DNA of 64,000 bases from an uncultured Candidatus Actinomarina sp. (GCA_902535055.1 CACASI010000001.1:53427-117426), one strand, 5' to 3'; positions 10,135 through 52,965 are shown, counted from the stretch's first letter. The notes: generated from the letters alone by a model not told the origin. Translations and numbers: made by a program.

Positions 10135-11203
10135 TTAAGTATTCCTCTTTAAAACTATCAAAACTTGAGTTTAATATACTATCCCTAGCTTGTTGAATAA
10201 TATTTTCAGTTTGAATTATATTATGAACAGTAAGATAAAGCCATGAAGATGTGGTTTCATTGACAAATAAATGTCTTAAATATGCTTTAGAAAAATTTTT
10301 ACAGACATAACAATTGCAATCTTCATCAAGAGGACTTGTATCTTTTTCATATTTATTATTTTTGATGTTTATATATTGATTTTTAATAATGAGTTTTCCA
10401 TGTCTTGCTAAACGTGCAGGCCATACACAGTCAAACATGTCCACACCAGAATCAATTAGATCTATCAATCCAATTGTGTCACCTAAGCCCATAACATAAC
10501 GAGGTTTATCAACTGGAAGTACATTAGATAAAAATTCAACAACAGATTTCCTTTCTTCTCTTGATTCGCCAATAGCTAATCCACCTATTGCATATCCATC
10601 AAAATTTAGATCAATCATAGATTTTGCAGATTGTTCCCTTAGGTTAAGATTTAATCCACCTTGAACAATACCAAATAAACTTTGTAGTGAATTATTGTGT
10701 GTTTCTTTTGCTATTAATGCCCATTTTTTTGTGATCTCAATCGCTTTTTTTTGTTCTTCATCAGGTTTATCAATGTCGATTAAACAATCAAAAATCATTG
10801 CTATATCACTTCCAAGCAAATTCTGAGTTTTTATCGAATCTTGTGGAGTTAGTTTAAAGTACGATCCGTCATATACGTTTTTAAATTCAACCCCATCATC
10901 ATATAATTTTGTTGGTAATGACCATGCTTGAAAGCCTCCTGAATCAGTAAGAATTAATTTATCCCAATTCATGAATTTATGTAAGCCACCATGATCGCTG
11001 ATTATTTTTGGTCCAGGACGCAAATGTAAATGATACGCATTTGCCAATAAAATAGAAGTTTTATTTAAATATTCGTGAGGTGTTGATTTTATAGTTCCTC
11101 TTGTAGCAACAGGCATGAATGTAGGAGTTTCAACTGTATTTCCATTTAAGGAAAGTAGTCCTGCCCTAGCTTTTTTATCTGTTTTGATTATTTCAAATTT
11201 CAT
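10127..11203 (-). CDS. tgt: queuine tRNA-ribosyltransferase
   Basis: 358 aa TIM-barrel protein with the Tgt zinc-binding motif CxCxxC...H (CNCYVCKNF...HL) and catalytic Asp regions. Confidence 0.9.
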   Translation of the reverse strand: MKFEIIKTDKKARAGLLSLNGNTVETPTFMPVATRGTIKSTPHEYLNKTSILLANAYHLHLRPGPKIISDHGGLHKFMNWDKLILTDSGGFQAWSLPTKLYDDGVEFKNVYDGSYFKLTPQDSIKTQNLLGSDIAMIFDCLIDIDKPDEEQKKAIEITKKWALIAKETHNNSLQSLFGIVQGGLNLNLREQSAKSMIDLNFDGYAIGGLAIGESREERKSVVEFLSNVLPVDKPRYVMGLGDTIGLIDLIDSGVDMFDCVWPARLARHGKLIIKNQYINIKNNKYEKDTSPLDEDCNCYVCKNFSKAYLRHLFVNETTSSWLYLTVHNIIQTENIIQQARDSILNSSFDSFKEEYLNG

Positions 11204-12204
11204 TTATTTGTTATTTTAAATAGCACGGCATCACCAAAACTTAAAAATTTTAATTCTTTTTTAAGTGCATAGCTGTATAGATCTTTCCAATTATCTCCAT
11301 AAATTGCATGAACAATAGAAATTAGAGTACTTCTTGGAGCATGAAAATTAGTAATTAAATAGTCTGCAATATTAAATTTAAAATCTTTAGTTATAAATAA
11401 ATCAGTTGAACCCTTTAATTCAGACGTAATATTTACATACTCCAATGCTCTTAACGTTGTAGTCCCAACGCAGTAAATTTTATATCCGTTCTTTTTCTTT
11501 TTAATAATATTTTCATATGTATTTCTTTGAATCTGATAATTTTCTGAATGAATATTAAAATCTTCAACATAATCTGTTGAGATGGGCTTAAAAGTACCAA
11601 GTCCTATATCTAGATTTATAAAATCAATCTCTATACCCTTATCCTTTAATTTTTGGAAAATATCTGATGTAAAGTGTAAGCCAGCTGTAGATGACGCTGT
11701 AGAAAAACCTTTCTTGCTAAAAAAGTTTTTATAGTATTTATATTTATGTTTTTCATCAATGATGTACGGAGGCAAAGGAGTAATTCCAAATTTTTGAATG
11801 ATATCTATTACTGGCGTAGAAAATATTACCTTAAACCTATCTTCTTCATGTGAAACTAATGTTATATTAAAATTCTCAAGTTTGATTTCTTCATTAAGTT
11901 TCTTTTTTCCACTAGTTTTTATAAGGCATAATGCTGTGTCTTCATTTAAAACTTCCAATATAAAAATTTCAAATTTTCCACCTGTTTCAAACTTTCGTGT
12001 TCTGATTCTTGCATCAACTACTTGTGAAGAGTTAAATATCATTAAAGATTTTGAATCAATTATTTTATTTATTTCTGAAAATTTGTAAATTTCCTTTGTT
12101 GAAGCATCAAGTAGCTTTGAATCTTCAGGGTTTTTATACGGTTCTTGAGCTATAGATTCAATAGGTAATTCATAATCTAATTCAGATACTGGTGTTTTAT
12201 TCAC
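11200..12204 (-). CDS. queA: S-adenosylmethionine:tRNA ribosyltransferase-isomerase
   Basis: 334 aa with the QueA N-terminal motif (LDYELPIESIAQEP) and a 4-nt overlap with tgt. Confidence 0.85.
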   Translation of the reverse strand: MNKTPVSELDYELPIESIAQEPYKNPEDSKLLDASTKEIYKFSEINKIIDSKSLMIFNSSQVVDARIRTRKFETGGKFEIFILEVLNEDTALCLIKTSGKKKLNEEIKLENFNITLVSHEEDRFKVIFSTPVIDIIQKFGITPLPPYIIDEKHKYKYYKNFFSKKGFSTASSTAGLHFTSDIFQKLKDKGIEIDFINLDIGLGTFKPISTDYVEDFNIHSENYQIQRNTYENIIKKKKNGYKIYCVGTTTLRALEYVNITSELKGSTDLFITKDFKFNIADYLITNFHAPRSTLISIVHAIYGDNWKDLYSYALKKELKFLSFGDAVLFKITNK

Positions 12205-12558
12205 TTACTTATTTAGTAAGCTAATAAACAAATCATAAGACATAGAGACAACTTCTGGAATACCATCGCTACTGCGTCTTTTATTGCCAGATTGTCTTTT
12301 TAATTTTTTCCAAAATAAGACTGTATTTTTATCTCCAGATTTTTCTAGAGCTTTTTCTAATGATTGATGAATGTTTAAATTTTGTCTTGATTTTGCTTCA
12401 ATAAAATATTCGACTCCATCCACAAATAGTTGTATATCGCCAAGATCATTTGAACCACCCTCAGCAAATCTTTGAGCTTTCATGTTCGAATTTTTGTTTA
12501 ATCTTTTGACTATATTAGTTTCGTAAGTAGTACCCTGTTTTTTAGCTTTATTGACCAC
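12205..12558 (-). CDS. Hjc-like (archaeal-type) Holliday junction resolvase, a small PD-(D/E)XK nuclease
   Basis: 117 aa. The pattern G..YE..IVK.L....KA.R.A.GGSNDLGDI.LF..G..YFIEAKS matches the Hjc core (GxxxERELV...GS..DLVA...KYL.IEVK), with catalytic E, D and ExK positions present. It lies between yebC and queA, where ruvC-ruvA-ruvB normally sit. Confidence 0.5.
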   Translation of the reverse strand: MVNKAKKQGTTYETNIVKRLNKNSNMKAQRFAEGGSNDLGDIQLFVDGVEYFIEAKSRQNLNIHQSLEKALEKSGDKNTVLFWKKLKRQSGNKRRSSDGIPEVVSMSYDLFISLLNK

Positions 12559-12577
12559 AAACTAATTGTAGCTAAAT

Positions 12578-13321
12578 TTATTGTGTTATTGCTTCTTCTA
12601 GGAGTTTGTTATCTATGTCAAAATTTGCATAAACATTTTGTACATCGTCCAAATCTTCAAGTGCTTCAATTAATTTAGATAACTTGTTAAATCCATTTAA
12701 ATCTAAATTTATTGAAGTAGATGGTAAATACGCAATTTCAGAATTAACTAAATTGAATTCTGAAGATCTAAATAGTTCGTCAATTTTTTGAAATTCAGAT
12801 GGATTAAATTCTAAGGTTACACCATTTTCATTTTCTTGAATATCAACACAGTTATTATCAATCGCTATATCTATAATATCTTCCTTATATTCATCAAATT
12901 GGAAAATTGCTTTACGTGCGAATAAGTAATTGACACTTCCTGGAGATCCAGTACTTCCTTCGTATTTATTAAATGTAGCTTTAACGTCAGAAGACGTTCT
13001 GTTCTTGTTGTCTGTTAAACATTCAACCAATATCGCAACACCACTAGGACCATATCCTTCATAGGTAATTTCATCAAATACACCTATTGATGAATCACCG
13101 TTTATTCTTTTTAACGCGTTTTCAATATTCGAATTAGGAACAGAATTTGATTTTGCTTTACTGATAGCCTGGTATAACGATGCATTGTTATTTGGATCAG
13201 CACCTCCAGTTTTGCCAGCAACCTCAATTGCTCTTATAAGTTTTGCAAAAAGTTTGCCTCTTTTGGCATCATTTGCACCTTTTTTGCGTTTTATCGTTGA
13301 CCATTTAGAGTGACCTGACAT
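12578..13321 (-). CDS. yebC: YebC/PmpR family DNA-binding transcriptional regulator
   Basis: 247 aa starting [25 protein letters not shown], the canonical YebC N-terminus. Confidence 0.9.
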   Translation of the reverse strand: MSGHSKWSTIKRKKGANDAKRGKLFAKLIRAIEVAGKTGGADPNNNASLYQAISKAKSNSVPNSNIENALKRINGDSSIGVFDEITYEGYGPSGVAILVECLTDNKNRTSSDVKATFNKYEGSTGSPGSVNYLFARKAIFQFDEYKEDIIDIAIDNNCVDIQENENGVTLEFNPSEFQKIDELFRSSEFNLVNSEIAYLPSTSINLDLNGFNKLSKLIEALEDLDDVQNVYANFDIDNKLLEEAITQ

Positions 13322-13889
13322 TTAAACCGTCCTTTAGAAAATTTTTAAGCCATTCTAGATAAATAATATCATTTGAAAGTTCTGGATGAAATGATAACCC
13401 AACAATATTATTTTCATGTATACCAACAACTTCTTCATCTATTAATGCAATAGGAGTGACTGTGTTAGCGTAAGATATTATTTTTGGTGCTCTAATAAAA
13501 CAATACATTTCCTTATTACCATTAAAATCAACCAAGCCCTCAAAAGATTCATTTTGACGTCCATATGCATTTCGTTCTACAACTGTGTTTAAACAAGAAA
13601 TTGATGATTGACCATCAATAACATCATTTGCTAGCAGAATTAATCCAGCACATGTTCCCAAAGTTGGCATTCCTTCATTTATTTTAATTTTGATGGATTC
13701 GAACAAATCATCATTCTTTTGAATTTTCATCATTGTTGTTGATTCGCCACCGGGGAGAATTAATGAATCTATGCTATCAAGATCTGAAACAGATTTTATT
13801 AATTGATATTCTTTATCAATAAGTTCTAATGATTTTATGTGATCAAAAAACGATCCTTGGAGAGCTAATACTCCAGTTTTCATTACCAA
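13305..13889 (-). CDS. pdxT: pyridoxal 5'-phosphate synthase glutaminase subunit PdxT
   Basis: 194 aa class I glutamine amidotransferase with catalytic Cys (GTCAG) and a C-terminal His/Glu region. It is adjacent to pdxS. Confidence 0.9.
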
Positions 13890-14781: not shown

Positions 14782-15804
14782 CTATATATTTTTATAGACA
14801 TAAATCCATTTTTGCAATACTTTATCCATGCTGTAATTTTGAGAAATATAATTGTATTGTTTCGACCAAATTTCATTTAAATTTTCTTCATTAAGATTAT
14901 TTATTGTCTTTTTAAGATCTTCAAAATTATCTTTAGCAAAGAAAATGCCAGAGTCATTTAACAAAGTTTTAAAAGCTTTAATATTTGAGCAAATAGCAAC
15001 ATTACCCTGATTGATTGCCTCTAATATCGTAATGCCAAAACTTTCAGATTTGTTGTTTGGAGCTATGTATATGCCAACATTACTAATTATTGATTTTTTA
15101 TCTATTTCAGATGGACTTATATGATATATAACAGATTTATTATCCGTTTTTTTATTAGTAACAGCTATAAATTTAAATTTTGATTCATAAAAATCAGCTA
15201 ATTGAACAAAAAGTTTTAAATTTTTCCTTTTTTCATCTCTACCAATAAACAGAAAGTTACCATTATCTTCGTATCTAATATCTTTATTAATCTCAATCAT
15301 GTTTGGAATAATTACTATTCCCTTGTTTAAGGACGTAGCATTATTTAAAGCTTCACTACTTACAGCGGTTGAATACAATTTTTTATTCCTCGTAAATAAA
15401 TATAAAATCTTCAAACATGCTTTGATAAAATTTCCAATATTTGCATGATGCGTAACAATAATCTTTTTTTTAGTATGTAATCTCCAAAAGAAAAAAGGCA
15501 TGAATGGTTCGTGCACATGTATGACATCAGCCCAAGAAATTGCTTCATTAATTATTTTCTTACTAGGAAAAAAATTTATTGGGTTCTGTGAACCATTAAA
15601 CGGAATCTTGACAGAATTTCCGATGTCGTAATCATAAGATGATGGTCCAAGTATTTTTGTATTGATACCTTTATTAACGAGTCCATTTTTTAATAACTTA
15701 ACTTGATTCTGTACACCACCATGATGATCTAAATCGTAAGGACAGACGAGTAAGACTTTAATATTCAGCTGTCCATATTGGTTGTATAGAGTGCCAATCA
15801 TTGA
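14782..15804 (-). CDS. GT4-family glycosyltransferase, PimA-like
   Basis: The N-terminal [14 protein letters not shown] matches the PimA/GT4 start (MRIGMVCPY..GGVQ). The C-terminal half has the GT-B EX7E region. The track ORF extends to 15894; the likely start is the internal ATG at 15804, which overlaps the upstream gene by about 47 nt. Confidence 0.7.
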
Positions 15805-42990: not shown

Positions 42991-43019
42991 AGGGAGTTCT
43001 CTGTCTGAACTCCCTTTTT
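42991..43019 (+). terminator. hairpin H5, intrinsic terminator oriented on the plus strand
   Basis: AGGGAGTTC tctgtct GAACTCCCT, a perfect 9-bp stem followed by TTTT on the plus strand. There is no plus-strand CDS upstream. Confidence 0.5.
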
Positions 43020-43048
43020 CGTAAAACACAAATGTTTTAAAAGACTAA

Positions 43049-43375
43049 TTATCTTTTAATAAACTTACCTTCTTTATCAGTAAATTTTCCTATAACTATC
43101 ATTATTAAATCAAGGAGGACCCATAAACCAAGACCGCCAAGTGTAATAATTTGTAAAAAACCAGTCCCCATTTTCCCAACATAAAATCTATGTATACCCA
43201 AAAAACCAGCAAAAAAACATAACAACAAAGTAACAAGCCATGTGTTGTCAGTTGTTAATCCTGTTGACTCATTGTTATTTAAGAGCTGTTCTTTCTTTTT
43301 ATCAAAGTCTTCCTGTGTGATTACACGATCATCTAAAAGCTTCTTGTATTTCGCTAGTTCTTCGGCATTACTCAT
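43049..43375 (-). CDS. TM2-domain membrane protein with an N-terminal SHOCT domain
   Basis: 108 aa. The N-terminal ELAKYKKLLDDRVITQEDFDKKKEQLL matches SHOCT. The C-terminal GFLGIHRFYVGKMGTGFLQIITLGGLGLWVLLDLIMI matches the TM2 domain. Confidence 0.7.
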   Translation of the reverse strand: MSNAEELAKYKKLLDDRVITQEDFDKKKEQLLNNNESTGLTTDNTWLVTLLLCFFAGFLGIHRFYVGKMGTGFLQIITLGGLGLWVLLDLIMIVIGKFTDKEGKFIKR

Positions 43376-43454
43376 AAAAATATGATATCAAAAACAAATA
43401 AGGTGTGTGGTCAGAACTTGGTTATTGTCATTGTGAATTTTTAAAACAAAATGA

Positions 43455-45479
43455 TTAGTCAATGAGACCAGTAGCTGATTTGATCTTAAGTACCCAATTA
43501 TGAGCATCCGAACCAAAATCTATAGTATTTCCACCAACAGTACTAAAGTTCGTAGTACCCGAAATTTGACCTACTGTAATAATAAAATCATTGGAATCAA
43601 TAACAATATCTTGCGCCTTATCATATGTATCCATGCCTGAACCGCCACCAAATGTTTTTGACCATTGAAAAGTACCAGAGGAATCATGCTTTACAATGTA
43701 AGCATCATTATTACTCCCAGATGCTACATCCTGCCCTCCTAAATTATAATTACCCCCAATTTGACCGACACTATAGACATTTCCATCATCGTCAATAGCT
43801 ACAGCTGTTCCAAACGCTTGACCAGCTGCTCCATTATCACGAGCAAATCTTTTAACCCATTGAAATGCTAAAGAGGAGTTAAGTTTAAGTAGATATATAT
43901 CCTTACCAGATGAGGTTATATTGCCACCTCCAAAATTTACTGTATTTTGAAATGTGCCAGTAGCGTAAATATTTCCAGAGGAATCAACAGATATTCCCTT
44001 TGCCTTTTGTGTAGTATCGATATTCGACGTATAGGTACTTTGAGTTGAGTTATAAGTATCAATTTTATGAATAAATAAATCGTTGGAATTCGCTGCAGTA
44101 TAAGTGTTATTTCCAAATTTAACAGTACCTGAAAAGCTTCCTGTCAAGTATGTAATATTATTCGAGTCAATTGCCAAGGCTCTTGCATCTGCACTTCCAG
44201 TATTCTCTGTTCTCCAAACAGACTGCCAAATTCCAGAGGAATTAAGTCTTATTAAGAAAACATCATAGTCATTCGATGTATAATTCACTACACCACCACC
44301 ATCACCACTATCGAAGTTAACAGTGCCACGAAAAGTACCGAGCATAATTGCATTGTCATTGCTATCAACAACTACATCTCTCCCAAGGTCGTTTCCAGTA
44401 CTTCCACCATATGACTTAACCCATTGAAAAGTTCCAGATGAATTAAGTTTGAGAATAAAAGCATCAAAACTGCCATTTGATGTTACATTTCCTCCACCAA
44501 AATCAACTGTATTCTGATAGTATCCAGCAACATAGATATTACCTGAGGAATCAAGCGCTATTTTTCTACCCCTGTCACGACCTGTACCTCCAGCGGTATA
44601 AACCCATTGGACCACTCCAGAGGAATTAAGTTTTACAACAAAAATATCTTGCGTAGTGCCTGAAGTAACACTGGCCCCAAACACATTTGTACCTGAGGAA
44701 GTACCGGTTATATAAATATTATCTGAGGAGTCAACAGCAACTCCCGCATTATCAGTTTCAATTCCACTGCCACCGAACGTTACTAGAAAACCAGAACTGG
44801 AACCTCCTGATCTGCCTTGACCACCTCCACCTCCACCTGAACTACCATCTCCACCGGAACTATTAGTTGATATACAGGGATCAGATTGAGGAATAGTAAA
44901 TGTTTGGCTCTGAGAGGAATTCCCTGCATCATCGAAAGCGATTACATATATAAGTTGATCAGCACAAGCCATATCATATTTTGGAGTTACTAGTAATCGA
45001 GTGTCAGAAATGGTTACATACGTTGATAAAGCACCATTGACATAAACCTCATAAGAGACAACCCCGACATTATCAGTAACTGATGGAATATTGAGGTTAA
45101 ATAGAGAACCAATCTCTGAAGCATAGGGTGAGGAATCAACATCCCATACTGGAGATACTGTATCAAGACTTAATGGACTAGTACTTGATGTTGGCTGAAG
45201 AGTCGTATTTAGAGAAGATAAATATGAACTCTCTCCGAGTAAAAGCTTTGAAAATGTTTCGTCACCAACCATTCCATCAACAACAAGTCCTGCCTTTTCT
45301 TGAAATGTTTTTATAGCTTCTTGGGTGTTTTTATCATTAATGCCTGTTGTAAAATTCAGATAACCCAAATCTATAAGTTTTTCCTGAATATAAGTTGTAT
45401 AAGGATCTTTTTCCTGAGGATGTGAAATATTAGCTAATGGCAATATTGAAATAAGAGCGGTAATTAAAATTTTTTCCAC
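43455..45479 (-). CDS. cell-surface protein with an N-terminal peptidoglycan-binding domain and six SBBP-type beta-propeller repeats
   Basis: 674 aa with a signal peptide and a PG_binding_1 repeat (LIDLGYLN...AIKTFQEKAGLVVDGMVGDETF). It has a Gly-rich linker (SSGGDGSSGGGGGGQG). Six repeats follow, of the form SSGTFQWVK..GG...D.G..V.VDSSGN.Y..G.F.GTVNFGGG. Confidence 0.6.
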   Translation of the reverse strand: MEKILITALISILPLANISHPQEKDPYTTYIQEKLIDLGYLNFTTGINDKNTQEAIKTFQEKAGLVVDGMVGDETFSKLLLGESSYLSSLNTTLQPTSSTSPLSLDTVSPVWDVDSSPYASEIGSLFNLNIPSVTDNVGVVSYEVYVNGALSTYVTISDTRLLVTPKYDMACADQLIYVIAFDDAGNSSQSQTFTIPQSDPCISTNSSGGDGSSGGGGGGQGRSGGSSSGFLVTFGGSGIETDNAGVAVDSSDNIYITGTSSGTNVFGASVTSGTTQDIFVVKLNSSGVVQWVYTAGGTGRDRGRKIALDSSGNIYVAGYYQNTVDFGGGNVTSNGSFDAFILKLNSSGTFQWVKSYGGSTGNDLGRDVVVDSNDNAIMLGTFRGTVNFDSGDGGGVVNYTSNDYDVFLIRLNSSGIWQSVWRTENTGSADARALAIDSNNITYLTGSFSGTVKFGNNTYTAANSNDLFIHKIDTYNSTQSTYTSNIDTTQKAKGISVDSSGNIYATGTFQNTVNFGGGNITSSGKDIYLLKLNSSLAFQWVKRFARDNGAAGQAFGTAVAIDDDGNVYSVGQIGGNYNLGGQDVASGSNNDAYIVKHDSSGTFQWSKTFGGGSGMDTYDKAQDIVIDSNDFIITVGQISGTTNFSTVGGNTIDFGSDAHNWVLKIKSATGLID

Positions 45480-45539
45480 TTCTAGATATTAGGCAAGAAA
45501 CTCTTCTAACCAAAATAATAATGCTGTTGGTAAATGGTT

Positions 45540-46754
45540 TTAGGGTAAATTAGTTAAGGACTTATATGCTTCATCTATAAGGCTTTGTCCTCTTTCATTG
45601 ATTAAATATTCTCCACCTAATTTGTTCACAAGATAACCAAAAGATAAATTACAGTCAGGATCTGAAAAAGTTGCACTACTTCCGCCAAAACCAACATGAC
45701 CAAACGCATTATTGCCGATCAAGAACGAGCCTCCCTCTCCTTCAAAGTTTCCTCTGTTGTCCATATTTAACATAAAACCTTCAGAGAAATTTGTTGGGAG
45801 GAGGAGCATGCTGTCTATGTTTGATCTCATATTGGATTTGCTTAGACGTTTGACGCCCTCTTTCGAAAGTAAACTTTCATCATTGTTAGCAAGTGGGGTC
45901 ATCATTGCAGCTAAAGATCTTGAATTAGTAATACCACCAACTCCACCTAATTCAGATCTATAAGTATCTGTAGAGTTATAGTCGTATCCCCCAGTATTAG
46001 TAAGTGACAATCTTTGCATTGAAGAAAGATCATTTCTAAATGCATCTGCGAATTTACTTGGTTTATCTGATGGGCTTGATGAAAAAGGTGTTACTTTTGC
46101 AACTTTATGATCATGAGTTTCAGGCAATCCAATCCAATAATCAAGGTTTAAAGGTTCAGCAATTTCTTCTTTAAAAAATTGACCAAGAGATTTTCCAGAA
46201 ATTCTTCTAATTAATTCACCAATTAACCATCCCGTTGTCATCATGTGATAACCTGTCTCTTCACCAGGTGTCCAAAATGGTTCTTCATTTTCTAATAGTT
46301 CAACTACATAGTTCCAATCTAAAAATCCACCATCTTCGACATAAGTTTTAAGAGCGGGTAATCCAGCGGAGTGATTTAAAATCATCTCTACTGTCGTGTC
46401 GTGTTTTCCATTCTTTCCGTATTCAGGCCAATATTTAGTTACTTTATCTTGAACGTTAAGAAGACCTCTATCAATTAGGAGATGAGCACATAATGCAACG
46501 GCAGCTTTTGTACATGAAAATGCAACAGATAATGTATTCTCATTCCATTCTTCATTCTTTTGCTGTGTTGTATGCCCAGCAAATATATCGACGGTTATTT
46601 CTTCATCTACTATTACGGATAGAGATGAACCTATTTCGTTATATTTATCAAAATTGATAGCAAATGTTTCTGCTACATTCTGAAAATCTTTGTGACAAGT
46701 TCCCCTAATTGGTAATGATGATTGATATTTAGTCTCAACTATATTTTGACTCAT
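45540..46754 (-). CDS. beta-lactamase-family serine hydrolase (class C / EstB-like)
   Basis: 404 aa with the SxxK motif (FSCTKA) near the N-terminus. The length and pattern are typical of class C beta-lactamase or esterase proteins. Confidence 0.75.
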   Translation of the reverse strand: MSQNIVETKYQSSLPIRGTCHKDFQNVAETFAINFDKYNEIGSSLSVIVDEEITVDIFAGHTTQQKNEEWNENTLSVAFSCTKAAVALCAHLLIDRGLLNVQDKVTKYWPEYGKNGKHDTTVEMILNHSAGLPALKTYVEDGGFLDWNYVVELLENEEPFWTPGEETGYHMMTTGWLIGELIRRISGKSLGQFFKEEIAEPLNLDYWIGLPETHDHKVAKVTPFSSSPSDKPSKFADAFRNDLSSMQRLSLTNTGGYDYNSTDTYRSELGGVGGITNSRSLAAMMTPLANNDESLLSKEGVKRLSKSNMRSNIDSMLLLPTNFSEGFMLNMDNRGNFEGEGGSFLIGNNAFGHVGFGGSSATFSDPDCNLSFGYLVNKLGGEYLINERGQSLIDEAYKSLTNLP

Positions 46755-46780
46755 ATTTTTAAAATGTATATTTTCTTTTC

Positions 46781-47653
46781 TTATTTAAATATTTTCATCA
46801 TCAATACAGGTGTATTTGCTTTGTACTCTTGATAATCAGATAACTCACCATATCGTTCATCAGCAATACGCTCTAACATAGGAACTCCTTCTGCTTTTCT
46901 CAAGAGTAAGTAAACAAACAGTGGAGATACTACTGCTGTGACATATTCAATACCAGATAAAGAACTAAGAGATATTACAGCCATACCTACCCAAAGCGTT
47001 ATCTCACCAAAATAGTTTGGATGACGAGATCTTGCCCAGAGACCAGTTGATATAAACTCTGTTTTAGGATCTGAAGTCTCCCTAAATTTTCTCTTTTGAT
47101 AATCTGATATAACTTCAATTAAAAATCCCGACCACCATAAAAATATTCCAATAAAAGCAAGAGCTTCTAATTCAGCTTCAACGGGAGAAAGAATAGCAAG
47201 TATAGAAGCCCCAGCTGAAAAGACTACCCATGCAGCTTGACCCATCCAATATTGAAGAAACCAAAAGAATTTTTTCTTCGCTTTATCAAATCTCTCATCC
47301 TTGCCGTCTTTGTTAATTCTCCTAAATAGAAATATTCCAAGCCTTCCAGCCCAGACTATGACATAGAGATAAAGTATCGTATCAATTGTTGATGGGTTAT
47401 CTAGGGAGAAATACGCAATACTTGTTACTGATATATAAGTGAGACTTCCTGTAAGATCATAAAATTTCTCGGTCTGAAATAAGAATGATGGAAGAAATAT
47501 TAAAAATTGAATCAAGACTGCCATAGATATCAAAAATTTAAATGAATTGAAACCAAGAATCTCTGTTTCAATATTGTTTGCAGTAAAGCTATACAAATAT
47601 ATTGCAAGCAAAGTTAAAGATACGTTTATGATATTTTGTGTTTGTTTAACCAT
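46781..47653 (-). CDS. DUF1295 / steroid 5-alpha-reductase-like membrane protein
   Basis: 290 aa polytopic protein with the C-terminal motif GLWARSRHPNYFGE that is diagnostic of this family. Confidence 0.65.
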   Translation of the reverse strand: MVKQTQNIINVSLTLLAIYLYSFTANNIETEILGFNSFKFLISMAVLIQFLIFLPSFLFQTEKFYDLTGSLTYISVTSIAYFSLDNPSTIDTILYLYVIVWAGRLGIFLFRRINKDGKDERFDKAKKKFFWFLQYWMGQAAWVVFSAGASILAILSPVEAELEALAFIGIFLWWSGFLIEVISDYQKRKFRETSDPKTEFISTGLWARSRHPNYFGEITLWVGMAVISLSSLSGIEYVTAVVSPLFVYLLLRKAEGVPMLERIADERYGELSDYQEYKANTPVLMMKIFK

Positions 47654-47654
47654 T

Positions 47655-48029
47655 ATGAATTATTATAAGCAGATGGATGATTACATTATTAAAAGATTCG
47701 AAAACCCTGATGAGGTCAGAGAGTTTGATAAAGGGAAATATGAGGTAGTCAACTTACCACATATGACCATAGGCAAAGCAACATACCATAAAGGATGGAA
47801 ATGGTCTGATGACGTCTCTCCCCTTTCTGGTACAGAATTTTGTGAGACTGAGCATCTAGGTATGGTTATTAGTGGTAATGCCACTGTTGCATTTGAAAAT
47901 GAAGAGCCAAAAGTTATTGGCCCTGGAGATATATTCTACGTATCAAATACACCCCACGACAGTTGGGTTGTTGGAGATGAAGACTATGTATCCATTCATT
48001 TTATGGGTGCAGAAAAATATGCTGATTAA
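47655..48029 (+). CDS. cupin-domain protein
   Basis: The cupin_2-like core is GMVISGNATVAF...GPGDIFYV..TPHD...V. The start was moved to the internal ATG (MNYYKQ) to avoid overlapping the convergent gene. Confidence 0.55.
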   Translation: MNYYKQMDDYIIKRFENPDEVREFDKGKYEVVNLPHMTIGKATYHKGWKWSDDVSPLSGTEFCETEHLGMVISGNATVAFENEEPKVIGPGDIFYVSNTPHDSWVVGDEDYVSIHFMGAEKYAD

Positions 48030-48092
48030 CCATAAGTCAAAATAATAGATAGATCCGTCATCACGTAGAACATTTAATTAGACTCGACTTAT

Positions 48093-48680
48093 ATGATTAA
48101 AAAATATTTATTTATACCCTTAGTTTTGCTTATTTCATTATGTGGTGGTGAAGCTGATAATGCTGAGGTTGTAGAGACAACTGAGAATACTGTAAATACT
48201 AATGTTGAGCAACCAACTGTAGATCTATTAGTTTCTGTTCAAGATAATGATTTAAATACTGTTAATCAACATATTGCTTATGGATCAGATCTAAACGTAC
48301 AAGATGGAACGTTTTCAAATACTCCCCTAAATTTTGCAGGTATTTATGGATTAACAGAAATTGCTGAAGTTCTTGTTGATGCCGGCGCAGATCTAAACCT
48401 AGTAAACGCTGACAACTTTACTCCACTATGTAATGCAGCAGCTTGGGGGCATACAGATGTGGTCACTATACTTCTTGATGCAGGTGCTGATATATCAGCA
48501 AAGTGTTTTGAAACACAAATTGGACTTTCCGTAGCTGTAGCAATAGCTATCAGTGCTCCATATTCAGATTATATAAAAGCACTGTATGTCGATCATGGAG
48601 AAAAATATAATATTCCTTATGACGAAGCAAAAATTATTGCAGGTAGAGAAAAAGTTACAGAGCTGCTCAGTAGTAGGTAA
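48093..48680 (+). CDS. ankyrin-repeat lipoprotein
   Basis: 195 aa with a lipoprotein signal (LISLCGG) and at least three ANK repeats (TPLNFAGIYGLTEIAEVLVDAGADLNL, TPLCNAAAWGHTDVVTILLDAGADIS). Confidence 0.75.
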   Translation: MIKKYLFIPLVLLISLCGGEADNAEVVETTENTVNTNVEQPTVDLLVSVQDNDLNTVNQHIAYGSDLNVQDGTFSNTPLNFAGIYGLTEIAEVLVDAGADLNLVNADNFTPLCNAAAWGHTDVVTILLDAGADISAKCFETQIGLSVAVAIAISAPYSDYIKALYVDHGEKYNIPYDEAKIIAGREKVTELLSSR

Positions 48681-48706
48681 ATATGTTCAAAATTAAATTT
48701 GAAAAT

Positions 48707-49855
48707 TTATTTTGATAATAAAATTGCCATTATCTGATCTTCAGGAAGGTCTAAAAATTCATAAAATTCATTAAGGTAAGTCTTGTAATCTTTTTCAAAT
48801 TGTATTTCAAATGATTTTTCAAACCCAAATTCTTCATACAAAGAATAAATATCCAAGATTTTATCTTCTCCGTGTTCGTTTACAAGATAAGCTATAAACC
48901 AAGCTCCAATTTCATAAGCAATTTGTTTATCGACAGGTTCAGGATTTCCACTAAATGTTATATTATTTAGTTTTACACCAGATTCTTTAAAAATCTCTAA
49001 TCTACTTTTATTACCATATCTGTCTTTTTCACACAGTAATGCACAATACATTTGATCCTTAAACCAACTCATGTCATTGATTGTCCTTGCATAATCTATG
49101 TAACTGAAATAAACAGCCGCACCTTCGTTCCACCATGGAACATCGTCTTCAGGATTATCTCCCGAAAATCTACCATTGAGCATTCTTTGCCCGTCGTAAC
49201 TATCAGTTGAATAATGCGAAGTTTGAAATATGTGAAACATTTCATGTAATGTAACATATCCCATCGATGATGCATGTTGAGGCAAGTCGTGTGTCCTGCT
49301 AATGAATAAATTGTATCCATCTCTTTGAGGTATGCTGCTTATTGCAGAACCAGCAACACCACCATTAGGCTCAACAAATAAACCATTACGTTCATATTCT
49401 TCCCTCGAATCTTCATTATCACCACATCTACTACTGTCATAACCGTCCTGTATAAATAGTTTTTTGTGCTCTTCTTCTAAAAATTCACAATAAACAGGTT
49501 CTAGTGCCAGTGCAGATTCTGGATTGTTTTTGTCAAGTTGTACAAGGTAAATAGGATATAAATTTTCAATAACTACATTCGGTTGACTAAAGTATAGTTC
49601 TTCCGATATTGCAACCCACTCTTTTAACATTTCTTGATGGTCATTTGAAACTGATTCTGCAATAAAATATATAATTTTACGATTATCAAGAGAAGAGGTT
49701 GTAGAATTTTCTTCATCATTAGGCGTTACAGAAGTAGACTCATTTGAAATTTCTTCATCCGGTAAAATTGTTTCATCAGATATATTAGAACTATCAGAAT
49801 CCAAACTACAAAATGTGACTGTTAAAGAAAAGATGAGAATAAAATAATTTTTCAT
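48707..49855 (-). CDS. secreted HExxH zinc metallopeptidase-like lipoprotein, paralog of 40973..42124
   Basis: 382 aa with a signal and Cys (TFCSLD) and an acidic Ser/Thr linker. It has HEMFH and a downstream WWNEGAAV motif that aligns with HEVTH...WLNEGIAH of the paralog. Confidence 0.55.
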   Translation of the reverse strand: MKNYFILIFSLTVTFCSLDSDSSNISDETILPDEEISNESTSVTPNDEENSTTSSLDNRKIIYFIAESVSNDHQEMLKEWVAISEELYFSQPNVVIENLYPIYLVQLDKNNPESALALEPVYCEFLEEEHKKLFIQDGYDSSRCGDNEDSREEYERNGLFVEPNGGVAGSAISSIPQRDGYNLFISRTHDLPQHASSMGYVTLHEMFHIFQTSHYSTDSYDGQRMLNGRFSGDNPEDDVPWWNEGAAVYFSYIDYARTINDMSWFKDQMYCALLCEKDRYGNKSRLEIFKESGVKLNNITFSGNPEPVDKQIAYEIGAWFIAYLVNEHGEDKILDIYSLYEEFGFEKSFEIQFEKDYKTYLNEFYEFLDLPEDQIMAILLSK

Positions 49856-49871
49856 AAATTAATAATAATCT

Positions 49872-49921
49872 TCAAAATAAATTTGTGGGAGATACAAGAT
49901 TTGAACTTGTGACATCTACCG
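49872..49921. repeat. distal direct repeat (attR-like): duplicated 3' 47 nt of tRNA-Val plus 3 nt of flank
   Basis: 49872..49921 is identical to 52847..52896 except for one mismatch (g versus t). It covers the T-arm, acceptor 3' strand and 3' anticodon-stem portion of the tRNA. Confidence 0.8.
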
Positions 49922-49980
49922 TGTCGAGGTAAATTTAAGTTCAATTATTTTAAGCTATATCAGATAATTTAATGAAATTT

Positions 49981-50016
49981 GTTTCCCATGTTTCCCATGT
50001 TTCCCATGTTTCCCAT
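49981..50016. repeat. perfect tandem repeat (GTTTCCCAT)x4
   Basis: It can be read directly in the sequence and is followed by the degenerate GTTTACC. The track ORF 49972..50193 (..SHVSHVSHVSHV..) is just this repeat translated. Confidence 0.9.
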
Positions 50017-50029
50017 GTTTACCAGAAAA

Positions 50030-50051
50030 ATGGTACACAAATGGTACACAA
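50030..50051. repeat. tandem 11-mer ATGGTACACAA x2 (iteron-like); a third copy lies at 52763..52773
   Basis: ATGGTACACAAATGGTACACAA is at the left end of the islet. ATGGTACACAA followed by the degenerate ACGACACACAA is at 52763..52785 near the right end, in the same orientation. Confidence 0.8.
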
Positions 50052-50053
50052 AA

Positions 50054-51406
50054 CTAATCTAATGAAAAAAGTTTTTCTAACTCATTTGCAAGAAAATCTA
50101 GTTTTAAATCTGTTGCTTCAAACTTTTTATAGTCAAAATTACACGCATCCCAAAGTATCGGGAAATCAAGTATTTCAGAATAATCTTGATTAAATGAATT
50201 CAGTTTTAAAACAACACTCTCATCGAGTCCATTCACTTTTCTATAATCAAAATCATTGTTATAAATAGCATAAAGTACAGCTAAATCGATTGGCTGTAAA
50301 GTAATAAATTGATCTTCTTGATATGACGTACTCACAATAGAATCAGAACAATTGTTATGATTTAAACCAAATGCATGAGCTAGTTCATGAATTAAAATAT
50401 GTTCACCTAAATTACTGTCTTCATCAACCCATATAACACCATGATTTGGTTTGATTTTATTATCGTTAAAAGTAGATCGATAATATCCAATAAACTCATC
50501 ACAAGAAAGTGTTGGAGATGAGTCAACGCATAAAGATTTATGTATATAAAGCGTCCCCTCATCTTGATCTGTTGCAAAATTAATTTCGAGATCAGGAGCT
50601 ACATCTTTCATCATATCAATAAACAATGCAACAGCAGTTAACTCACTATCTGTGAAATCTCCAAAGAAAACAAGGTTTACAGGAGATAATAATTTATGGT
50701 GATTGTATCTTGTCCACTCTAGATTTTCTTGATCCCAATCGTAAATCGATAAAAATAATGCTTTATCCGAAACTTTAGCATATGAATTAAAATTGTCTAT
50801 GGATAGCTGGTTACTTAATTGAACATAATCAAAAAATTTATTTTCTACAGAAAGATCTTTAAAGTACCACTCAGGGACAACTGATTCATTTATATTTACA
50901 AAATATCTTGATGAATCATCGTGAATTTCAGTTTCGTAATCTCTAAAGAGGTTTGCACCACATACATCATTATTTATAAATTTCACATAAAGTGATAATG
51001 AAAAAGTTATTTCGCTAGAACCAGAATATGTATTTAAAGGCATAGTAAAAGGGTTACTAATTGTGTGAACTCTATTTTTGGTTGATAAATAAACTGGTTT
51101 GATAAAGTGATAATCTAAACCAAGAGTGTAATTTGTATTTTTGTCAGCAAAATCAAAATTAAGAAATATCTGCTTTATTCCATCATCTTCTGGAAATTTA
51201 TTAAATACAATATAAAAATTATTAAATTCTTCACTAAATTTATATTCAATTTTATCAGTAAGTGAATAACAATAAGAATCAACAACAAGTTGGAAGCTTT
51301 CCTCTTTCATTTTCGTAGCTTTATTGTCTGCATCGATTACTAATGATAAAAATGACACCGAGAATAAATATATAATTAAAAATGATAAGTCTGTTATATT
51401 TCGCAT
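50054..51406 (-). CDS. secreted metzincin-type zinc metalloprotease
   Basis: 450 aa with an N-terminal signal/anchor. It has the HExxHxxGxxH motif (HELAHAFGLNH) characteristic of metzincins (matrixin/astacin-like). Confidence 0.6.
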   Translation of the reverse strand: MRNITDLSFLIIYLFSVSFLSLVIDADNKATKMKEESFQLVVDSYCYSLTDKIEYKFSEEFNNFYIVFNKFPEDDGIKQIFLNFDFADKNTNYTLGLDYHFIKPVYLSTKNRVHTISNPFTMPLNTYSGSSEITFSLSLYVKFINNDVCGANLFRDYETEIHDDSSRYFVNINESVVPEWYFKDLSVENKFFDYVQLSNQLSIDNFNSYAKVSDKALFLSIYDWDQENLEWTRYNHHKLLSPVNLVFFGDFTDSELTAVALFIDMMKDVAPDLEINFATDQDEGTLYIHKSLCVDSSPTLSCDEFIGYYRSTFNDNKIKPNHGVIWVDEDSNLGEHILIHELAHAFGLNHNNCSDSIVSTSYQEDQFITLQPIDLAVLYAIYNNDFDYRKVNGLDESVVLKLNSFNQDYSEILDFPILWDACNFDYKKFEATDLKLDFLANELEKLFSLD

Positions 51407-51459
51407 AATTTATTAAACAAAAGCAGAGTAAATTATTACCCTGCTTTTGTACCGCTTAA

Positions 51460-52635
51460 TTAGGAGTTTTTTCCTAGCCAATAATTCCATTTAAGAGCAA
51501 CGTTACTCCATACAAATGAATCTTTTCCAACTTCTGTAATTGATTCCCTCTGAGACACTGCCTCATTTATGGTTTCAATAATTTCATAGCCATATTCATC
51601 CCAGGCTTTTTTCATTGTTTGAAAATCAAAAAGGCCCTTCTCTTCGAATATTCTAAAGCTTGAAAGAGATGGCAATAAAGCACCTCTATTCAAAGTATTA
51701 GTTGGTTTTCCGTATTTATCTACAACCATAGTTTCTTTAAAGGATTCAGAAATTCTTAAACTTCCAAACCTTCCACCATTTTCGTTATAGATCTGTTCTG
51801 CCGTGCACAACATGTAATCACGTATAGCCAATATATTTTTTAATTTTGTTTTTGTGACTTGGAATTTTATTTTTCCTTCATCCGTAGCAAACATATTAAC
51901 TAATGAAGACTTAGATGAATATGGTCTAGTCAACAATTTGTCAGTGCTTCCAGATGGAAACATGTCACTGTTAGTTGCCCATAGATATCCAAGTAAATCT
52001 CTACTGTCTATAGCAAATAAAGTTTTATCATCATCTTTATATTCATTTTGCCTAAATTGAATACTGTCTTTCCATGTTTCTGGAAGTTTAGATATGATAT
52101 CACTAAATTCATTTCTCATATGAAGCAATGTTTCTTTAGTAACACTTACAGATGAATTTTGACCTTCAGCAATAGCTGCAATGGATTCTCTGTCTTTTAT
52201 TCCACCAAAAAATCGAACAATAACTTGTTGATTAGACAACTCTTGTTCTGGAGATTTTCCAGCATCATTCATTGCATCACAGACTTCTCTGATAGCTCTA
52301 TATGTGTGTGCACCATTTAATACACCATTAAGATCATCTGGTTCTTCACTCAGTTCGATAGTAATTGGTTTTGTGGTGTCTTTATCAAGCAATACACTTA
52401 AACAATTAATGGTTATACCTTGGTTTTTATACCTAAATAATCCATCATTGCTTTCTAATGATTCCTTAATCCCTTTAGTAACTGCATTTGTCATTTTCTG
52501 ATGTCTTGGATTAGCATCAGTTGATATTTCTGGTGCTCTCCATAAATCAGAAACATTAACAATAGCAGTATGTTCTCTTTTTTTAGGATCATTTGAGTCA
52601 GGATGACTCTTTATAGTTTGAATATATAATTTCAT
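51460..52635 (-). CDS. orphan hypothetical protein carried by the islet
   Basis: About 391 aa from the internal ATG (the track ORF starts at an upstream GTG, 52668). There is no signal peptide, P-loop or tyrosine/serine-recombinase motif. It has a weak DGQHR/ParB-like segment (VLNGAHTYRAI). The upstream region contains the ATGGTACACAA repeat. Confidence 0.4.
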   Translation of the reverse strand: MKLYIQTIKSHPDSNDPKKREHTAIVNVSDLWRAPEISTDANPRHQKMTNAVTKGIKESLESNDGLFRYKNQGITINCLSVLLDKDTTKPITIELSEEPDDLNGVLNGAHTYRAIREVCDAMNDAGKSPEQELSNQQVIVRFFGGIKDRESIAAIAEGQNSSVSVTKETLLHMRNEFSDIISKLPETWKDSIQFRQNEYKDDDKTLFAIDSRDLLGYLWATNSDMFPSGSTDKLLTRPYSSKSSLVNMFATDEGKIKFQVTKTKLKNILAIRDYMLCTAEQIYNENGGRFGSLRISESFKETMVVDKYGKPTNTLNRGALLPSLSSFRIFEEKGLFDFQTMKKAWDEYGYEIIETINEAVSQRESITEVGKDSFVWSNVALKWNYWLGKNS

Positions 52636-52849
52636 ATATATCTCTCTTTCTGTGGACTTTCGCCGCACTATTTTTTTAATGTGACATTTCTGCGCACATA
52701 GTGATTTTTACAAATTGCAAAAATCTTAATTATTATACCATAAATTTAAAGAAAAATCGAAAATGGTACACAAACGACACACAAATTAGATAATAAAAAT
52801 TTTAAATAAAAAGATTAGACATAAAAGCCTATGTTTTTTGATTATTTTG

Positions 52850-52922
52850 TGGGAGATACAAGATTTGAACTTGTGACATCTACCTTGTCGAGGTAGCGCT
52901 CTGCCAGACTGAGCTAATCTCC
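52850..52922 (-). tRNA. tRNA-Val (anticodon GAC)
   Basis: The cloverleaf has acceptor GGGAGAU/AUCUCCC, D-arm GCUC/GAGC, anticodon stem CUACC/GGUAG with loop UCGACAA, and T-arm ACAAG-UUCAAAU-CUUGU. CCA is not encoded. Position 33 appears to be C rather than U. Confidence 0.8.
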
Positions 52923-52965
52923 CGTATAAAAAAATATAGCAGTATAAATACGATTTGTAGAATAA

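Follow-up and report, generated by a model that had tools for sequence, protein, structure and literature searches.

Gene cassettes with tRNA direct repeats, variable between near-identical genomes, have been described in the flexible genomic island of Ca. Actinomarinales (PMC7771536). That study gives no mechanism for them, does not contain the word "integrase" and deals mainly with the glycosylation island fGI1 and its five tRNAs, and tRNA-bounded hypervariable regions have also been confirmed, without mechanism (Nielsen and Lui, 2026 preprint). How streamlined ocean bacteria that are nearly devoid of prophages, plasmids and insertion sequences build tRNA-bounded islands is a question raised for Prochlorococcus, SAR11 and Actinomarina (PMC7771536; bioRxiv 10.1101/2020.12.28.424599; bioRxiv 10.64898/2026.04.03.716425). 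Here we address this question with a 2,964-bp insert (the islet) at the tRNA-Val(GAC) gene of an uncultured Candidatus Actinomarina sp., located in a 64,000-nucleotide stretch of DNA (GCA_902535055.1 CACASI010000001.1:53427-117426) that we call the window and whose numbering is used throughout. The islet resembles the described cassettes in its host order, in ending with a partial tRNA repeat and in being variable between close genomes. In contrast to them, it adds a complete phage attachment site (attP) with arm sites and a cognate integrase-bearing phage, and its cargo is of a predicted defence type and does not consist of envelope genes. Thus, the kind of feature, a tRNA-bounded cassette, is already known, and what is new is the complete phage attP, the co-variation of its arms, its recurrence as a family and a cognate phage integrase that can be named. 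We consider it probable that the islet is an integrase-less miniature integrative cassette, consisting of a complete phage-type attP plus cargo, which is similar to the cis-mobilizable elements (CIMEs) and is mobilized by a phage integrase.

CIMEs are known from the streptococcal ICE (integrative and conjugative element) families, where they are mobilized when a related integrase-bearing element integrates alongside and both are excised jointly (Pavlovic 2004, Bellanger 2011, reviewed in PMC5704250). As in a CIME, attL and attR are kept in the islet, with both cores and arms collinear with a phage attP, and genes for integration and transfer are absent, the only genes being those of an AIPR-family protein and a metzincin. 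The arms, however, are those of phages that encode WhiB, terminase and portal proteins and do not come from an ICE or mobilizable element, so that att donor and presumed helper would both be a temperate phage instead of a conjugative element, and the mobilization itself is a prediction. Moreover, the islet is reduced to an attP and one or two genes, and it recurs as a diverging family and not as a one-off decay product. The tycheposons of Prochlorococcus are cargo elements at tRNA genes that have partial-tRNA flanks, stack in tandem and carry defence and niche genes (bioRxiv 10.1101/2020.12.28.424599). The islet shares with them a streamlined marine host, the integration at a tRNA and the partial-tRNA flank, but a tycheposon encodes a tyrosine or large serine recombinase of its own and, as a rule, a replication module, and the islet, which has neither, would at most correspond to the degenerate remnants of that paper. 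P4-like satellites are likewise small tRNA-integrated elements with anti-phage genes (Rousset et al. 2022, PMC9122126). These satellites and the phage-inducible chromosomal islands encode their own integrase, replication functions and capsid or packaging-hijack proteins, whereas the islet, with only two genes, has none of these. Pseudo-SCC elements (SCC, staphylococcal cassette chromosome) at the staphylococcal orfX gene and integron cassettes consist of cargo with a recombination site only, have their recombinase encoded elsewhere (the Ccr serine recombinases and IntI acting on folded attC, respectively) and accumulate in tandem at one site. The islet has the same composition, with a recombinase that would also reside elsewhere, but its recombination sites are of another kind, and the tRNA target and the arm-type sites are found in the islet alone.

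The boundaries of the islet were defined by a repeat search of the window, in which the two copies of a direct repeat are spaced by 2964 nt, and by the tRNA gene that one of them overlaps:

52849..52923, minus strand, intact tRNA-Val(GAC), the integration target (ARAGORN; Rfam RF00005, 65.7 bits)
52846..52895, unstranded, tRNA-proximal repeat copy (attL side), with the putative crossover (overlap) region in its anticodon loop, TCGACAA at 52885-52891
49882..49931, unstranded, distal repeat copy (attR), with a partial tRNA-Val at 49885-49927 (loop TCGACAC at 49921-49927), then native chromosomal flank

The complete repeat (49877-49931 and 52841-52895) extends over 55 nt with 95% identity, and its inner block (49882-49931 and 52846-52895) over 50 nt with a single mismatch, which falls on tRNA position 38 in the anticodon loop and is an A in the tRNA and a C in the partial copy. 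A 29-nt core of the repeat occurs exactly twice in the window and never in 100 shuffles. An earlier annotation made without database searches (the sequence-only reading) had reported a 50-nt repeat with one mismatch, which is real; its second interval was right to within 1 nt, but the first (49872..49921) was displaced by about 10 nt with respect to the correct 49882..49931. The attL core is formed by the 3' 43 nt of tRNA-Val (52849-52891), which include the anticodon loop and everything 3' of it. Both ends of the islet carry this 3' part, and the tRNA gene itself is intact, as in integrative elements of tRNA genes. Directly upstream of tRNA-Val, ARAGORN places a tRNA-Cys and a tRNA-Gly gene.

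To compare this locus with related genomes, the SRAP gene beside the tRNA was used and retrieved nine Ca. Actinomarina genomes (L001-L009), all of them with the S51 peptidase-SRAP-tRNA-Val synteny; the tRNA-Val of L001-L005 and L007 is identical in sequence to that of the window. No second tRNA-Val fragment was present in any of the nine within the 4.5-10 kb searched downstream of tRNA-Val. In L001 and L002, whose flanks are 93-95% identical, tRNA-Val is followed directly by the orthologue of the 48707-49855 gene, and the overlap equals the repeat: the sequence after CCCAC in these genomes (AAATTTATTTTTAAG...) is the one found after the partial tRNA copy in the window, the flank below 49885 matching the sequence directly 3' of their tRNA-Val. 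Because of these empty sites, and because none of the nine relatives has a second tRNA-Val fragment, the insertion is precise and polymorphic among close relatives. The sequence-only reading had proposed attL and attR ends left by site-specific integration, and had named an intact tRNA-Val followed directly by the 48707..49855 gene as the empty site to be looked for. The proposal is supported by precise sites of exactly this kind in L001 and L002, and the arrangement whose conservation in all relatives would have spoken against it is absent from all nine genomes examined.

There is no coding room for an integrase in the islet, in which antisense open reading frames (ORFs) do not exceed 73 amino acids (aa). 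A tblastn search with three phage integrases gave nothing significant in the islet or in the 64-kb window, and neither did a hidden Markov model (HMM) of 29 related integrases searched against the six frames of the window. The absence of a recognizable recombinase, already noticed from the sequence, therefore holds for the islet and for the whole window, and the islet does not have the integrase of its own that characterizes tyrosine-recombinase integrative elements and tycheposons.

In the attP of phage lambda, the core has a 7-nt overlap between inverted half-sites, integrase binds arm-type sites on both sides, and tandem Xis sites are located in the P arm. A comparable set of elements was found next to both repeat copies of the islet:

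52783..52848, minus strand, P' arm spacer of 66 nt, from the tRNA 3' end to the arm motif pair
52761..52782, minus strand, P' arm-type site pair, GTGTGTCGTTT GTGTACCATTT, two 11-bp direct repeats
50028..50049, minus strand, P arm-type site pair, GTGTACCATTT GTGTACCATTT, starting 4 nt past the metzincin stop codon
49980..50024, minus strand, P-arm array, 5 x 9 bp (ACATGGGAA on the tRNA strand)
49928..49979, minus strand, P arm spacer, ending in TTTACC (left core half-site)

Hence, attL is composed of the tRNA core, a 66-nt spacer and an 11-bp pair, and attR of an 11-bp pair, the 5 x 9-bp array, a 50-nt spacer and the core. The cargo directly adjoins the outermost arm site at either end, and of the phage the full attP alone remains. 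The metzincin, the 402-aa ORF and the two arrays of short repeats that the sequence-only reading listed as the content of the islet are all real, but it had missed the further 11-bp pair at 52761-52782. In comparison with lambda, the putative half-sites are the two arms of the anticodon stem, the arm direct repeats are about 230 bp apart and a tandem array occupies the P-arm position of the lambda Xis sites; the motifs, however, are unrelated in sequence, the attP of the islet stands apart from its integrase gene, and protein binding is predicted. We expect the 11-bp motifs to bind the arm-binding domain of the integrase. Each 9-bp unit repeats the core of the 11-bp motif in inverted and degenerate form and co-varies with the motif (TGTTTCCCA versus TGTGTACCA in the window, TGTGTCTCA versus TGTGTGTCA in the diverged copy L031 described below), and the array is a candidate for additional sites at which integrase or an excisionase would bind.

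tRNA-Val is indeed used as an attB by phages. In three marine viral contigs (L011, L012 and L014), a 43-nt piece of tRNA-Val that is identical to the host tRNA and runs from its anticodon loop to its 3' end lies next to a PF00589 integrase gene (415-416 aa) and a WhiB gene, with no full tRNA present, and a 24-kb prophage in tRNA-Val has been described in an Actinomarinales single-cell genome (Lopez-Perez et al. 2020, PMC7771536). On each side, the phage core is flanked by a tandem 11-bp pair (TGGTCGCTCTT in L011, GGGTGCTCTTT in L012), the two pairs being about 234 bp apart. A search with the L011 integrase yielded 29 relatives. Among these, the integrase P0028 (403 aa, 48% identical to that of L011) is encoded on the contigs L097-L100 together with WhiB, and L097 additionally carries the genes for TerS, TerL and portal. 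In the L097 attP, GTGTGTCGTTT GTGTACCATTT TTCTGG GAAAGATGG (GAAACATGG)x4 ... is followed by a spacer of about 50 nt that ends in TTTACC, next by TCGACAAG ..., and then by GTGTGTCATTT GTGTACCATTT. The 5-unit 9-bp array of the islet is found with the same sequence in the attP of L097-L099. When the attP of the islet was reconstructed by joining its ends, it aligned with the L097 attP end to end over about 270 nt, almost without gaps, with the following identities:

P motif pair and array, 66/72
P' motif pair, 21/22
Left half-site and loop, 11/12
Spacers, 63-72%
tRNA 3' half, 18/36

The P' spacer is collinear with that of L097 (63% identity, 66 versus 70 nt) and the P arm spacer is 72% identical and of equal length (50 nt), with TTTACCTCGACA in both. 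Since the motifs are 92-95% conserved and the spacers 63-72%, the putative protein-binding elements are conserved well above the spacers. A 79% likeness of the islet P arm to L014 was not used because it falls mostly on the tRNA-like part.

The sequence-only reading had advised a look for the islet in other places, and two diverged copies of it were found. The marine metagenome contig L031 has the order tRNA-Val, AIPR gene (67% aa identity), metzincin gene (70% aa identity), motif pair, 5 x 9-bp array and partial tRNA-Val, with the motif GTGTGTCRTTT (GTGTGTCATTT/GTGTGTCGTTT) on both arms and five units of ACATGAGAC in the array. In L020, the S51 peptidase, SRAP and tRNA-Val genes are followed by AIPR only (73% aa identity), a motif pair and a partial tRNA, which makes an element of 1.65 kb with the motif CGTGACCAYTT on both arms. 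In each case, the partial copy matches the resident tRNA variant and the outer arm sites directly adjoin the cargo, and the att repeats are perfect or nearly so in every copy. Within an element, both arms have the same motif variant, and each element has a variant of its own; the same is true of the phages. Although their proteins are 26-33% different, the three copies keep both motif pairs, with a spacing that is constant within about 10 nt. To compare the geometry of islets and phages, two distances were taken, one between the start of the P motif pair and the loop, the other between the loop and the start of the P' motif pair, with the islet ends joined as in an excised circle:

Window, islet, 122 nt and 109 nt
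L031, islet, 122 nt and 110 nt
L020, islet, 111 nt and 111 nt
L097, phage, 122 nt and 113 nt
L011, phage, 123 nt and 111 nt
L012, phage, 122 nt and 112 nt
L103, phage, 123 nt and 111 nt
L096, phage, 124 nt and 110 nt

The islet geometry matches that of the five measured attPs of integrase-bearing phages (122-124 and 110-113 nt). Three more attPs of such phages (L014 and L106/L107) have the same layout, not measured to the nucleotide, and L013, with a 524-aa integrase, has a wider spacing of 273 bp. The block of identity starts at the anticodon loop in L020, L031 and the phage attPs, and this loop is probably the crossover site.

These results are consistent with a mechanism in which the islet would have entered tRNA-Val(GAC) by tyrosine-integrase recombination in the anticodon loop. 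The element would have brought a replacement 3' half of the tRNA, which would account both for the intact tRNA and for the partial copy of 43-50 nt at the distal end. The recombinase would be provided in trans by temperate WhiB-encoding actinophages, whose integrases of about 403-416 aa use the same tRNA-Val loop and attP geometry; the lineage that matches the islet, with the same arm motif and 9-bp array, would be that of integrase P0028 (L097-L100). The phage integrase could excise the cassette as a circle, with the expected junction P spacer ...AACTTAAATTTACC + TCGACA[A/C]GGTAG...CTCCCAC + AAAATAATCAAAAAAC, and could re-integrate it. For spread from cell to cell, we infer that the more plausible route is accretion and cis-mobilization, in which a phage integrates beside the cassette, the composite is excised and the cassette is left in a new host. 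Mobility at the present day is part of the same inference. Among the origins that the sequence-only reading had offered, mobilization in trans fits best: a full phage-type attP is split over both ends of the islet, and a phage with a cognate integrase has the same arm sites.

Several observations weigh against an integrase-mobilized cassette. The L097 attP core lacks the tRNA 3' half (18/36 nt match), and no tRNA gene is present on the 9.7 kb of L097 examined. A scan of viral contigs for the P' junction of the islet gave nothing, and no excised circle, attP junction or phage-islet composite was observed in that collection or, for the composite, among GenBank phages. AIPR cassettes occur without any att structure (L016, L032), so the AIPR gene is cargo and not machinery, and it is not tied to this vehicle. 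In addition, the AIPR genes of the window and L020 are about as diverged (75% nucleotide identity) as the core flank (68% nucleotide identity), and part of the distribution may therefore reflect vertical descent with losses; such losses could occur by RecA recombination between the 50-nt repeats, for which no integrase is needed.

The islet could be an inert fossil, an L097-like prophage that had integrated at tRNA-Val and was reduced to its two att ends by internal deletion or replacement, with a fixed cassette that is no longer mobilized and can only be lost. This is unlikely but deserves consideration: no integrase is present, the arms are clearly phage-derived, the divergence of the islet copies resembles that of the host flanks, and prophages are rare in this order (PMC7771536). 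Neutral decay, however, predicts neither the kept arms nor the conserved motifs, the matching of arms or the patchy presence. Three copies with 26-33% protein difference have maintained motif pairs, spacing, core repeats and flush cargo; motifs are far better preserved than spacers between islet and phage (92-95% against 63-72%); each element has the same motif variant on both arms; and the islet is absent from genomes that are 93-95% identical, all of which counts against a fossil. The earlier proposal of a decayed element may describe the origin of the islet, but does not explain both arms, the spacing and the matched motifs of the three diverged copies.

It is improbable that the cassette spreads by homologous recombination, that is, by a double crossover in conserved flanks, with the tRNA repeat as a historical scar. 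This is the usual model for flexible genomic islands (PMC7771536), and the upstream flank (S51 peptidase, SRAP and tRNAs) is indeed conserved. The downstream flank is nevertheless hypervariable, being different in L003, L004, L005 and L007, and therefore offers no common right-hand homology, and homologous recombination leaves the conservation and co-variation of the arm sites and the host-matched cores unexplained.

A self-mobilizing single-gene element, in which the AIPR-like protein would be a new site-specific recombinase reading the 11-bp motifs, can be regarded as very improbable, and the same applies to the earlier idea of a 402-aa novel recombinase. AIPR is the sole gene of the 1.65-kb islet of L020, its homologues are found in repeat-flanked islets at three tRNAs (Val, Phe and Gly), and its N-terminal domain has a weak ParB-like nuclease fold. 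However, the protein is assigned to the AbiU1/AIPR defence family, a copy with 94% identity has genes for a RecD-like helicase and a C5 methylase as neighbours and neither an intact tRNA nor arm motif pairs, and another homologue adjoins an N6 methylase gene. Moreover, the att geometry is that of tyrosine integrases, and identical geometry and motifs are found in phages with ordinary tyrosine integrases and no AIPR. Finally, an ancient fixed duplication of the tRNA 3' end, as opposed to a mobile insertion, has next to no credibility, since the arrangement is absent from all nine relatives and two of them have the exact empty site.

Between the arm sites, the islet contains the following features:

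51460..52635, minus strand, cargo gene 1, predicted AbiU1/AIPR-family abortive-infection protein, 391 aa (Pfam PF10592)
52636..52760, minus strand, AIPR promoter with an extended -10 (TGGTATAAT), and a structured 5' leader in which two hairpins have GNRA loops (sequence reading)
51415..51450, minus strand, terminator-like hairpin after AIPR, AAAAGCAGGGTA...TACTCTGCTTTTGTTT (sequence reading)
50054..51406, minus strand, cargo gene 2, predicted metzincin-type zinc protease, 450 aa, with an N-terminal hydrophobic anchor or signal

The mechanically called ORF of the first gene (51460-52668, 402 aa) begins at a GTG at 52668, but the ATG at 52635 is the likelier start and gives a protein of 391 aa. 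The 402-aa protein had been called an orphan, which is refuted by the HMM search: it matches Pfam AIPR PF10592 with an E value of 5e-16 (59.6 bits, cut-off 25), the match covering residues 52-197 and the first half of the model only, and for its family a library of 1.8 billion representative proteins contains 846 representative clusters (50% identity). Homologues are 58-94% identical, and all ten close ones have the same Pfam assignment. In an AlphaFold model of moderate quality (pLDDT 70), the N-terminal domain gave weak ParB-like/DndB-like, SspE and KorB fold matches; the weak ParB-like fold is consistent with a link to DndB, but is not decisive. Elsewhere, AIPR homologues adjoin restriction-modification, helicase or HNH genes (L016, L032, L022). 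We therefore predict, from its family and from its neighbours in other loci, that the protein acts in abortive infection and that the cargo is of the defence type, an assignment with support in the literature (PMC3506569, PMC9122126); AIPR-domain proteins are among the anti-phage genes of the defence hot spots of P4-like satellites (PMC9122126). No model of PADLOC or NCBIfam matched the AIPR protein or the metzincin, and AIPR had no relatives among the viral contigs.

The second gene contains HELAHAFGLNH, which conforms to the zinc-binding motif HExxHxxGxxH and predicts a protease, and its product matches Pfam Peptidase_M10 (E value 7e-6, 26.4 bits, cut-off 24). An orthologue that is 70% identical occupies the same place in L031, and L020 lacks it. 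The possibility that the metzincin is a paralogue of the adjacent peptidase-like genes was ruled out by comparison.

The AIPR leader (52636-52735, minus strand) is also present upstream of AIPR in L081, L085, L086, L032, L022, L030, L033 and L031. Its hairpins in the aligned loci are ATTACAAnGTGTAAT / ATTGCAAAAGGCAAT and GTGCGCAGAGATGCCAC / GTACGCAGAAATGCTAC / CTGCGCAGAGATGCCAG, and 5 of the 17 predicted pairs change on both sides in a compensatory manner; in the window, L016 and L020, the second hairpin type occurs twice in tandem. The leader had no match in Rfam and might act as a regulatory RNA in cis or as an RNA antitoxin of the Abi protein. In L016 and L020, homology runs on through the hairpin after AIPR, which is the same in L020. 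A consensus terminator scan did not call this hairpin (51415..51450), and the consensus promoter and terminator scan as a whole was uninformative (16 sites versus 19 expected).

Just upstream of the AIPR promoter, L020 (3781-3820) and L016 (about 524-567) carry a decayed third fragment of the tRNA-Val 3' half (CGCAAGGGGTCACAACTATAAAATCTTAGAT...), which is present in L016 although no tRNA is nearby. A decayed tRNA-Val fragment is the sole tRNA trace upstream of the 94%-identical AIPR copy. The fragment looks like the scar of an older integration that was carried along with the AIPR cassette.

AIPR homologues were also detected in islets at other tRNAs. L081 (34-2903; also L082-L084) contains a second integrase-less islet, located at tRNA-Phe, with an AIPR homologue (63% aa identity), two unknown genes, a perfect 44-nt repeat from the anticodon loop, and tandem pairs of its own (AAAACACTGAAC x2; AAACTGTAACC/AAACTGTCACC). 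L022 (1-3572; also L023-L026) is a 3.5-kb islet with AIPR (66% aa identity), an HNH protein and a HIT protein, with the 5' half of tRNA-Gly, as far as the anticodon loop, as its boundary at both contig ends. L022 begins and ends with the same 30 nt, a length equal to k-1 for the k=31 assembler, and it could be an excised circle or simply a contig with repeats at its ends; the chromosomal left junction of the tRNA-Gly islet is visible in L024.

The locus provides a concrete mechanism that can be tested for one cassette, with a cognate phage integrase that can be named, and yields matched attP arms, cores and phage integrases for work on arm-site specificity. The chances seem to us evenly balanced that there is a whole family of minimal attP cassettes (1.6-3 kb, an attP plus one or two genes) that parasitize the integrases of temperate phages, with an arm specificity that co-evolves with phage lineages, and that build the tRNA-bounded hypervariable islands. 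If so, Ca. Actinomarina and perhaps other prophage-poor streamlined marine bacteria would host such attP cassettes, which would be a phage-driven counterpart to the cassettes of integrons, the platform being a tRNA gene. If the cassettes are active, passing encounters with temperate phages would suffice to shuffle defence genes among cells that have no recombinase.

The phages that use tRNA-Val showed some additional features. L096 and L103, whose cores lack the tRNA 3' half, each have a tRNA-Val(GAC) gene of their own, 19 nt past the stop codon of the integrase gene (L096 10674-10748; L103 4750-4824), and L013 also encodes one (4464-4538). The acceptor stem of the phage-encoded tRNA-Val is unlike that of the host and the anticodon arm is the same, and no tRNA gene is present in L011 and L012, the phages whose 43-nt core is perfect, which suggests two ways to keep tRNA-Val function after phage integration. 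In L097, a 110-aa ORF (1489-1821) that has no Pfam match shares 4 nt with the start of the integrase gene (1818-3029) and adjoins the P arm, and is a candidate for an excisionase or a directionality factor; in the L011-type phages, an ORF of 80-82 aa that overlaps attP has a similar location. The nearest named integrases among GenBank phages are those of Streptococcus phage T12/T270, with 27% identity. GenBank phages matched the islet over the tRNA only and did not match the attP-int region of L097, and scans of viral contigs for the variant-2 tRNA core and for the L031 arm gave nothing. A scan of viral contigs with the 9-bp array matched only coding repeats in giant-virus-like contigs. The degenerate pair GTGTRYCRTTT x2 occurs at 47 loci of viral contigs, none with a tRNA-Val core, and was not used as evidence; about 35 of the loci belong to one GC-rich phage family of a single sample, and the neighbouring ORFs checked at seven loci include no integrases. 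Exact tandems of GTGTACCATTT (x2-3) are found in about 35 GC-rich (about 0.6) viral contigs of about 40 kb from one sample (L035-L080; IMG/VR 3300045988 and others), and similar 11-bp tandems in several unrelated viral contigs.

When the window (43000-49900) is compared with L001-L009, almost every genome has a different gene content in the 6-7 kb downstream of the tRNA-Val gene. In the window, this region codes for an ankyrin-repeat protein, a DUF1295 protein, a beta-lactamase-fold protein, a peptidoglycan-binding beta-propeller protein and MA-clan peptidase-like proteins. The products of ten ORFs inspected from 28 to 45.5 kb, to the variable side of the islet, are peptidases, glycine-cleavage enzymes, a gamma-glutamyltranspeptidase and sugar enzymes, with no glycosyltransferase among them, and no exact-protein matches to the two islet-flanking genes are on record. 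In L001 (AG-333-G05, 10919-13813), the islet-flanking peptidase-like gene is present in two tandem copies that are 87.5% and 93% identical to window 48707-49855. A few kb downstream of tRNA-Val, L007 (AG-447-I21) has partial tRNA-Phe fragments 1.6 kb apart (13744-13806 and 15364-15401), at which ARAGORN found no full tRNA-Phe. This suggests that these fragments are further cassette scars in the same variable region.

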